A stretch of 20,958 nucleotides of DNA from positions 1 to 20,958 of IMG/VR virus record IMGVR_UViG_2703718839_000004. One strand, 5' to 3'. The notes below the pieces were generated by a model. It was given only the letters and a program-made list of their open reading frames with translations, was not told the DNA's origin and ran no database searches. This stretch comes from a virus (taxonomy: Duplodnaviria; Heunggongvirae; Uroviricota; Caudoviricetes). Positions 13,266 through 13,978 of the stretch are shown here, in pieces (within the stretch, counting starts at the first letter, position 1; every line of letters starts with the position of its first letter). A program made the translations under genes and the position numbers.

Positions 13266-13655
13266 TCAGGCGGCTGCACCCGCCGTTTTCTCGTACTTAC
13301 TGATAGTGATCTCGACCTTCCCTTCCGGGATAACCGGTCCCCACTCCACCAGCATTCTTTTCACCTGACTGTCGTCTTCCCACACACCCGCGTGGGTCAG
13401 GGCGTCAAACAGCGCCTTGTTATAGTTGTCCAGATCGCGGATCCGGTTATCCGGAGGAAACAACACGATCTCCACTGAAGCAGGTGCCGACGTTGGTTTC
13501 GGCAGACGACGTAACTGCTCAACTATTGCTGCACACGCCGCGCTCTGGAATTTTCGCCCCGCCGCGCTTATCAGGCACTTACCAGCAAACGCCCCTTTGT
13601 TGGGGTGTCGCCAGTACGTGTTCACGCTGGGCGGAAAAGGCAGGATCAGCTTCAT
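13266..13655 (-). CDS. rusA: RusA Holliday-junction resolvase
   Basis: 129 aa; LPFPPSVNTYWRH... and RDLDNYNKALFDALTHAGVWEDDSQV match the RusA family; start overlaps the upstream gene stop. Confidence 0.9.
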   Translation of the reverse strand: MKLILPFPPSVNTYWRHPNKGAFAGKCLISAAGRKFQSAACAAIVEQLRRLPKPTSAPASVEIVLFPPDNRIRDLDNYNKALFDALTHAGVWEDDSQVKRMLVEWGPVIPEGKVEITISKYEKTAGAAA

Positions 13656-13978
13656 ACTTTCAGGCCCCTCTCATGTAACCAATGGGCTGCACGCAGCCTG
13701 GCGTTTTCCTTACCGGCAAGCAGTGAGCGGATAATCCCAACCGCCTCGCTGTCGTCGTCCTTCACCGCGGTATGAAGAGTGATACCCCTGGCCACGCCAC
13801 GCTTTATCGTGATGACGCCTTTTTTCTCCAGTGCTCGAAGATGCTCCACCGCTGCATTCACTGAACGGTATCCCAGCATGGTTGCCACCTCCTGATTGGT
13901 TGGCGGGAAGCCACGTTCTTTCTGGTAAGAAATCAGCATATCCAGCACCTGCTGCTGGCATTGAGTTAACGTCGTCAT
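13652..13978 (-). CDS. LexA N-terminal DNA-binding-domain homologue lacking the S24 peptidase domain
   Basis: 108 aa; LTQCQQQVLDMLISYQKERGFPPTNQEVATMLGYRSVNAAVEHLRALEKKGVI aligns with the LexA winged-helix domain (LexA: [53 protein letters not shown]); no GDSM/Lys catalytic module follows. Confidence 0.75.
   Translation of the reverse strand: MTTLTQCQQQVLDMLISYQKERGFPPTNQEVATMLGYRSVNAAVEHLRALEKKGVITIKRGVARGITLHTAVKDDDSEAVGIIRSLLAGKENARLRAAHWLHERGLKV

Follow-up and report, generated by a model that had tools for sequence, protein, structure and literature searches.

What might a LexA DNA-binding domain that has no protease attached to it do in the early operon of a prophage? The question is raised by a 20,958-nucleotide stretch of viral DNA (positions 1 to 20,958 of the IMG/VR virus record IMGVR_UViG_2703718839_000004; Duplodnaviria; Heunggongvirae; Uroviricota; Caudoviricetes), hereafter the window, which carries at 13652-13978 on the minus strand an open reading frame (ORF) described in an initial annotation as encoding exactly such a protein. 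We confirmed this ORF, which has an ATG start, a stop codon at 13652-13654, a 108-aa product, and a Shine-Dalgarno sequence (GGGAG, 13987-13991, minus strand, read from the sequence) that lies 8 nt 5' of the ATG. The product probably acts during phage growth as a damage-insensitive DNA binder of the LexA type. More tentatively, and with a confidence that falls somewhat short of probable, we propose it as a putative RecA-insensitive surrogate of LexA whose sites would most probably be the SOS boxes of the host.

A LexA winged-helix domain without a protease

The N-terminal part of the protein matches the Pfam family LexA_DNA_bind (PF01726) over its entire length (residues 1-65 against profile positions 1-65 of 65; E 2.9e-19, 69 bits against a cut-off of 23.7), and a phmmer search of the PDB aligned residues 2-69 without gaps to residues 2-69 of the E. 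coli LexA DNA-binding domain (1lea, E 6.9e-16). In an AlphaFold2 model of the 108-aa protein, with a mean predicted local distance difference test score (pLDDT) of 85, residues 1-68 (13775-13978, minus strand) form a winged helix-turn-helix comprising helices 6-22 and 28-35, a recognition helix at 40-52, and wing strands at 56-58 and 66-68. This region superposes on LexA from a LexA-DNA crystal (3jso_B) with a root-mean-square deviation of 0.8 Å over 68 columns at 50% identity. No Peptidase_S24 (PF00717) match was found in the window's protein or among the 120 homologues listed, which bears out the domain content given in the initial annotation. The score against the NCBIfam lexA equivalog (TIGR00498) was 69.3 bits, below the cut-off of 110.95, indicating that the protein is not a LexA orthologue.

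E. coli LexA contacts DNA through Ser39, Asn41, Ala42, Glu44 and Glu45 of helix 3 (PMC3091678). Helix 3 of the window's protein, RSVNAAVEHL, retains four of these five, so that the LexA-like set of contacts holds at Ser39, Asn41, Ala42 and Glu45 but fails at position 44, where Glu is replaced by Val; the wing residues Arg64 and Gly65 are also the same as in E. coli LexA. Judged by its residues, helix 3 is clearly of the gamma-proteobacterial LexA type. In a 15-member alignment of diverged relatives, Ser39, Arg64 and Gly65 are invariant, as are Ala97 and Leu101 further towards the C-terminus. Beyond the shared fold and contacts the two proteins part ways, as E. coli LexA has an S24 domain with catalytic Ser119 and Lys156, a C-terminal dimer interface and a conserved Ala84-Gly85 site in its cleavage loop, whereas the window's protein has an extra two-helix tail.

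A conserved helical tail in place of the LexA C-terminal domain

The winged helix is followed by a short acidic linker, HTAVKDD (residues 69-75; 13754-13774, minus strand), in which pLDDT falls below 50 at residues 71-75, and by a tail (residues 76-108; 13655-13753, minus strand) that is predicted to form two helices, 75-88 and 93-103, and that ends in ...GLKV. A structure search with the tail returned no structural match. The hairpin is amphipathic and conserved, and is best read as a module for self-association, that is dimerisation, or for the binding of a partner.

The tail contains the Ala-Gly dipeptide to which the initial annotation had drawn attention, Ala88-Gly89 within LLAGKEN (residues 86-92), and on account of which it had left room for cleavage in trans. 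MAFFT places IIRSLLAGKE opposite the hinge and cleavage motif of LexA, LVGRVAAGEP, with LLAGKE facing VAAGEP, and the alignment to the lexA equivalog hidden Markov model (HMM) extends through residue 91, suggesting that the hinge or cleavage loop of LexA may survive as a vestige in the first tail helix. Together with the intermolecular cleavage of LexA that Kim and Little reportedly described in 1993, this resemblance favours a protein that serves as a decoy or poison for host LexA, or as a substrate cleaved in trans at Ala88-Gly89 by LexA, CI or UmuD-type proteases. However, the dipeptide is gone from relatives at 40-50% identity (which have VERES, LTRKE, IDDQP, IAEEP and others), it is Ala-Asn in Citrobacter (LLANEE), and in the model it lies within a confidently predicted alpha-helix (block-mean pLDDT ~90) rather than in an extended strand. 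As the motif is neither conserved nor predicted to be extended, cleavage in trans is unlikely. LexA dimerises through its C-terminal domain; with that interface missing here, the heterodimerisation with host LexA or poisoning of it that had also been entertained loses its structural basis. We consider a decoy or a trans-cleavage substrate very improbable.

The family is prevalent and under purifying selection

The window's protein matches the PHROG 362 profile with its tail included (residues 1-108 against profile positions 1-106 of 106; E 5.9e-59). Its gene is orf42 of phage SfV (NP_599074), whose protein is 96% identical, and proteins of 94-99% aa identity are found in SfII, SfIV, SfV, cdtI, mEp460, Ayreon, 1720a-02, several Stx2a and Stx2c phages, and others. 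SfV-type phages and the window have the same gene order, dam, LexA-domain gene, rusA, and the whole early region of the window (10585-18805) is ~96% identical to SfV and the Stx2c phages. At a coverage of at least 80%, DNA of the gene was present in 2223 of 5426 complete E. coli genomes (41%), with a maximum of four copies per genome.

The sequence is therefore already known and annotated. NCBI names the protein 'LexA family transcriptional regulator', in clusters that hold thousands of sequences, while individual homologues are labelled 'unknown', 'transcriptional repressor', 'LexA-like protein' or, wrongly, 'SOS-response repressor and protease LexA'. In the literature, SfV Orf42 and PHROG 362 turned up only in catalogues, for example as pham 237 of Stx phages (PMC8136144), and no functional study was found; in the case of the 'bully phage' 1720a-02, which carries the gene, a co-resident prophage is suppressed via Cro and not via the LexA-domain protein. 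Membership of a defence system was considered and rejected, as a PADLOC scan gave only a weak, winged-helix match. A profile search of genome contigs returned mostly true LexA genes, from Halomonas and its relatives, plus seven loci of the family. Among virus proteins, small types consisting of a LexA domain alone are common across many virus groups, and one of these, gp6, has been characterised. Six proteins of 160-350 aa (P0131, P0148, P0151, P0155, P0159 and P0163) have two separate LexA_DNA_bind matches per chain, and may be single-chain pseudo-dimers.

Full-length members of the window's lineage are ~106-108 aa long, and tail-bearing relatives down to ~40% identity are mostly 106-118 aa, reaching up to ~135 aa where there is an N-terminal extension, and 165 aa in one database entry. 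For close pairs, the ratio of nonsynonymous to synonymous substitution rates (dN/dS) lies at 0.03-0.06 over the domain and at 0.13-0.31 over the tail, which indicates that domain and tail alike are under purifying selection. Had the ORF been a decaying remnant of a full-length LexA/CI-type repressor gene, a truncated pseudogene of the kind named in the initial annotation, the missing C-terminal domain would be explained, and nothing else. Lengths kept to 40% identity, presence in 2223 of the 5426 genomes, a dN/dS far below 1 in domain and tail alike, a good Shine-Dalgarno sequence, and coupled overlaps of stop and start codons with the neighbouring genes rule this out, and we regard its probability as negligible.

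Position in the early operon

A lambdoid early and lysis region takes up the right two-thirds of the window; its minus-strand order is cro, a CII-like gene, an Ash-family gene, an O-like replication gene, dam, the LexA-domain gene, rusA, KilA-N, DUF968/HNH, Q, pR'/tR', an orphan ORF and the lysis cassette. The LexA-domain gene shares a 4-nt ATGA overlap with each of its neighbours, phage dam directly 5' (PF05869; 13975-14673, minus strand; overlap 13975-13978) and the gene for the RusA Holliday-junction resolvase directly 3' (13266-13655, minus strand), and by this arrangement is predicted to be translationally coupled to both within the PR operon. Further 3' are the DUF968/HNH gene (YdfU-type, phrog_96; 11440-12435, minus strand) and the gene for antiterminator Q (10674-11426, minus strand), with which the early operon ends.

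Cro and the PR/operator region (17195-17485, minus strand) constitute the only evident source of transcription for the LexA-domain gene, as no promoter-like site was found on the minus strand from this region to 13978. The lack of an intervening promoter and the overlaps with both neighbours point to a delayed-early product that is made at induction, after CI cleavage, or upon infection. The CI-type repressor (17486-18160, plus strand) has an S24 domain with a QAG cleavage site, a GDSM serine and a KRL lysine, features by which the prophage is predicted to be SOS-inducible; the setting described in the initial annotation, an early operon in a prophage with a cleavable CI, was thus recovered. 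An integrase (19095-20270, plus strand) and an excisionase are also present.

A sister lineage carries the gene behind an SOS-box promoter

We compared loci of the family from annotated phages, GTDB genomes and IMG/VR, and found two types of module that have in common the gene for the LexA N-terminal domain (LexA-NTD) plus tail and a downstream DUF968-Q pair. Type A comprises the window, SfV, mEp390, Citrobacter, Kosakonia, Buttiauxella and 62 IMG/VR loci, in the order replication gene or methyltransferase, LexA-NTD, rusA, KilA-N or Rha, DUF968, Q. Type B, which belongs to the same PHROG 362, comprises Klebsiella phage ST846-OXA48phi9.1 and 28 IMG/VR loci, and forms a tight operon of a dinI homologue (PF06183, E 8e-22), orf101 (phrog_1813), LexA-NTD-plus-tail, orf67 (phrog_1212), DUF968 and Q.

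SOS boxes were sought with a position weight matrix (PWM) that was trained on twenty E. coli boxes and checked by its clean recovery of canonical boxes elsewhere; a scan of 867 kb gave 55 boxes scoring at least 14, versus 3-4 in shuffles. None of the 62 type-A loci from IMG/VR has a box within 1.5 kb upstream of the gene. Type B has a sigma-70 promoter with a canonical SOS box lying across its -10 element (for example ttgacc-N17-ggtaTACTGTTTATTTATACAGTA; PWM scores 17-30), and in 25 of 28 loci, drawn from five or more lineages that are 47-64% identical to one another, this box lies 437-689 bp upstream. The first gene of the operon is usually the dinI homologue; one lineage (L087-L091) is without dinI, and there the box directly precedes the orf101 and LexA-NTD pair.

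DinI attenuates the co-protease activity of RecA. The SOS-box promoter and the linked dinI of type B tie the family to the SOS circuit, and are the strongest evidence that does so; they lend independent support to the SOS-linked circuit that the initial annotation had thought plausible from the window. As judged from these arrangements, the window-type gene would be induced through cleavage of CI, and the type-B gene directly by cleavage of LexA, alongside DinI.

The same comparison bears on whether the protein might be a DNA-binding accessory of a recombination and repair module (Dam, RusA, DUF968/HNH), for instance one that modulates or targets nucleases via its tail. In almost every locus of either type, the LexA-domain gene is followed 0.3-2 kb downstream by a DUF968/HNH gene, though the intervening genes differ, and the linkage persists across ~40% protein identity. 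Coupling to rusA, as in the window, extends to diverged type-A loci, the pairing being kept in Citrobacter, Kosakonia, Buttiauxella, mEp390 and most IMG/VR loci, and a conserved tail with no assigned partner or structural match would suit such a role. However, type-B loci are mostly without a RusA that is detectable with the window's RusA as query (L087 has a possible RusA-like ORF, seen by eye only), and the recognition helix, being of LexA type with Ser39 and Arg64-Gly65 invariant, speaks for the base-specific reading of an operator. We know of no precedent for a DNA-binding accessory of this kind, and consider this role improbable.

Several further observations concern the SOS boxes and genes of these loci. 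In the type-B operon (L096:4290-7174; also L003, L087-L113 and L120), Q is apparently under direct LexA control. The orf101 product, whose gene is always directly upstream of the LexA-domain gene in type B, has no known fold or family; that it is a hidden S24 domain or a remnant of the C-terminal domain was considered and dropped, as neither Pfam nor the PDB gave support. In two loci (L100:3879-3898 and L109:3837-3856), the dinI box has another canonical SOS box ~480 bp upstream of it; the ORF that follows this second box starts MGFPSP(A/P)KDYAEQ and is UmuD-like by eye, which suggests that SOS-regulated genes are densely clustered in these prophages.

In SfV (orf48; L001:2806-2825) and in Kosakonia (L010:6794-6813), a DNA methyltransferase gene just 3' of Q also has a strong SOS box at its start, with a consensus near TACTGTAAAAATAxACAGTx. 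This box and gene look like a LexA-controlled late-region moron. Similar boxes occur 3.3-4.7 kb downstream of the LexA-domain gene in eight IMG/VR loci (L088-L090, L112, L115, L135, L154 and L176), and the window has a different, orphan ORF at the place where SfV has the box and methyltransferase. In Edwardsiella phage EPP-1 (L004:3231-4210), a tail-less LexA-domain gene of 71 aa (helix 3 SPNAAEDHL) occupies second place in a unit that has a strong SOS box, AACTGTATGTAAATCCAGTA (PWM 25), in front of it.

Which DNA sites might be read

If the protein is to occupy SOS boxes, several results weigh against it. The type-B boxes are explained by host LexA alone and are no proof that the phage protein binds them. 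In the window, where the initial annotation had looked to CTGT-N8-ACAG boxes as possible targets, the PWM found no credible SOS box, its best score being 8.3, as against 12 or more for the training sites and a mean of 10.4 for the shuffle maxima. CTGT-N8-ACAG has a single exact occurrence in the window, at 16485-16500 (CTGTGGTTATTTACAGACAG, 16485-16504), ~100 nt into the Ash-family ORF; with a PWM score of 5.0, below real boxes and shuffle maxima alike, it was rejected as a target and is probably due to chance. Position 44 is never Glu in the tail-bearing members that were aligned or in the tail-bearing lineages tabulated, but Val, Phe, Ala, Thr, Leu, Tyr or Gly. Position 45, a determinant of specificity in engineered LexA variants, is Glu in the window's lineage and several others, Asp in a lineage of 54 loci (SPNAATDML), Leu in one of 17 loci (SPNAVALHL), and Gly in Citrobacter. 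Such variation between lineages would not be expected if every member had to read the invariant box of the host, and the DNA target need not, on these residues, be a canonical SOS box in all members; it may differ among them.

These observations raise the alternative of a phage-private transcription factor, similar to gp6 of phage GIL01, that reads an altered phage operator and acts as activator or repressor on the DUF968-Q end of the nin region, on the late promoter or on its own operon. There is precedent in gp6 itself, a truncated LexA homologue of 66 aa that works alongside host LexA and activates the late promoter P3 from a palindrome of its own (PMC6182141). The at least nine different helix-3 sequences across lineages, with positions 44 and 45 varying, suggest diversifying specificity; DUF968 and Q accompany the gene at almost every locus of either type; and proteins with only a LexA domain are, as noted, common among viruses. 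On the other side, inverted repeats of CTGT and ACAG with spacers of 0-24 nt were not clustered in the regulatory regions of the window, and none of CTGT type was present at pR', at the O-dam junction or in the operator/immunity region, so that the phage segment of the window offers no obvious target in cis. The protein retains the LexA contact set except for Glu44. The gene also travels in mosaic phages with differing immunity and late regions without any linked intergenic DNA of its own, a behaviour that is better matched by a target universal to hosts than by a phage-private operator.

Nor does the resemblance to gp6 reflect common descent that we could detect. Both proteins are phage-encoded, consist of a LexA domain without a protease and are expressed from an early operon; BLASTP of the window's protein against gp6, however, gave no alignment at E ≤100. 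Unlike the window's family, which has the extra tail and keeps more of the LexA contact set, gp6 of the Betatectivirus GIL01 has no tail, derives from a Bacillus-type LexA, reads GaCACA..TGTGaC through Lys38, and belongs to a different virus realm. The absence of detectable similarity and the difference of realm indicate independent recruitment and a convergent resemblance. The gp6 site overlaps the -35 of its late promoter; at pR' of the window there is no CTGT-type repeat, and the one palindrome there is AAAACAT-N7-ATGTTTT over the -10. Taken together, we hold a phage-private regulator, the main alternative, to be rather unlikely, though deserving of weight.

A search for palindromes that covered pR', the O-dam junction and the stretch upstream of the holin gene found two sites, neither of them CTGT-like. 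The repeat at pR' (10609-10629) is just downstream of Q, over what we read as the -10 of this putative promoter. The other is a 27-bp near-perfect palindrome at 14685-14711, TTCAATGAATTTC g GAACTTCATTCAA, in the short gap between the O-like gene and dam; its loop is too short for a typical terminator, and it may be a protein-binding site.

A possible RecA-insensitive surrogate of LexA

Returning to the surrogate proposed at the outset, we envisage that the gene is silent in the lysogen and is expressed from the delayed-early PR transcript. Since its product has neither an S24 autoprotease domain nor a functional cleavage loop, it would not be inactivated by RecA. The two-helix hairpin would replace the C-terminal domain of LexA in self-association, and the protein could then occupy CTGT-type half-sites, most probably those of host SOS boxes, while host LexA is depleted. 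LexA-like repression would in this way be re-imposed after the destruction of host LexA, and the SOS response damped or reset during lytic growth. Possible targets are recA, other SOS-controlled mobile elements and phage morons with SOS boxes.

That a free LexA DNA-binding domain may repress has a counterpart in the host, where the N-terminal fragment of cleaved LexA is reported to keep some SOS-box binding and repression and to be cleared by ClpXP (bioRxiv 10.1101/2022.09.18.507959). The phage protein resembles this fragment (residues 1-84) in being such a free domain. It differs from it in that the host fragment is transient, whereas the phage protein is the product of a dedicated and selected gene, with a probable self-association tail and another C-terminus. 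The exposed ...VAA end of the cleaved fragment is reportedly, from work by Neher et al. in 2003, a signal for ClpX; the ...GLKV end of the window's protein differs from it.

The purpose proposed here, to tune the host SOS response from a mobile element, is shared with phage and plasmid modulators that act on RecA or LexA, such as DinI homologues and GIL01 gp7, and a dinI homologue is co-transcribed with the type-B gene. These proteins act by contact with RecA filaments or LexA, unlike the window's protein, which is a DNA-binding domain. After SOS-triggered induction or, in type B, when made from its own SOS-box promoter together with DinI, the surrogate could re-occupy SOS boxes, proof against RecA, and close the host response. 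That the family constitutes a widespread negative-feedback arm of the SOS network, one that prophages encode and that had gone unrecognised, is an extension that we consider doubtful at present.

Other features of the window

Between pR'/tR' (terminator 10552-10571) and the holin gene lies an AT-rich ORF of 196 aa (9986-10576, minus strand) that looks like a moron; its N-terminus reads by eye as hydrophobic, and it has no Pfam, PHROG or PADLOC match. On the plus strand, 77-7938 holds a DNA invertase and P2-type tail genes (sheath, tube, tape measure, gpU-like, gpD and a phrog_603 regulator), which converge head-on with the lysis cassette of the lambdoid segment (7912-20270). No head or terminase genes follow Rz in the window, and none of the complete E. 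coli genomes holds more than 52% of it. From this organisation the region appears to be a mosaic, or two abutting elements that are possibly defective.

Implications for the SOS response and for phage biology

The gene will not surprise a specialist, yet it is very prevalent and is carried by Shiga-toxin phages. To what was known of it we add the conserved helical tail, the exclusion of a pseudogene, the weakening of the trans-cleavage and LexA-poison ideas, the lack of SOS boxes in cis, the varying specificity positions, and the sister-lineage operon in which an SOS box precedes dinI, orf101 and LexA-NTD. The occurrence of one family both inside a PR operon and behind its own SOS-box promoter with dinI constitutes a natural experiment. 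If it is a private operator that is read, the family would represent a second independent recruitment by phages of LexA's DNA-binding domain as a regulator, after GIL01 gp6. If SOS boxes are bound, four in ten E. coli strains, Shiga-toxin producers included, would carry a RecA-independent switch for re-repression, with a bearing on antibiotic-induced mutagenesis, prophage competition and toxin release. Because ~40% of E. coli genomes and the Stx2a and Stx2c phages carry the family, such a switch would influence how much RecA is present, how co-resident prophages and colicins are induced, mutagenesis and the output of Shiga toxin.

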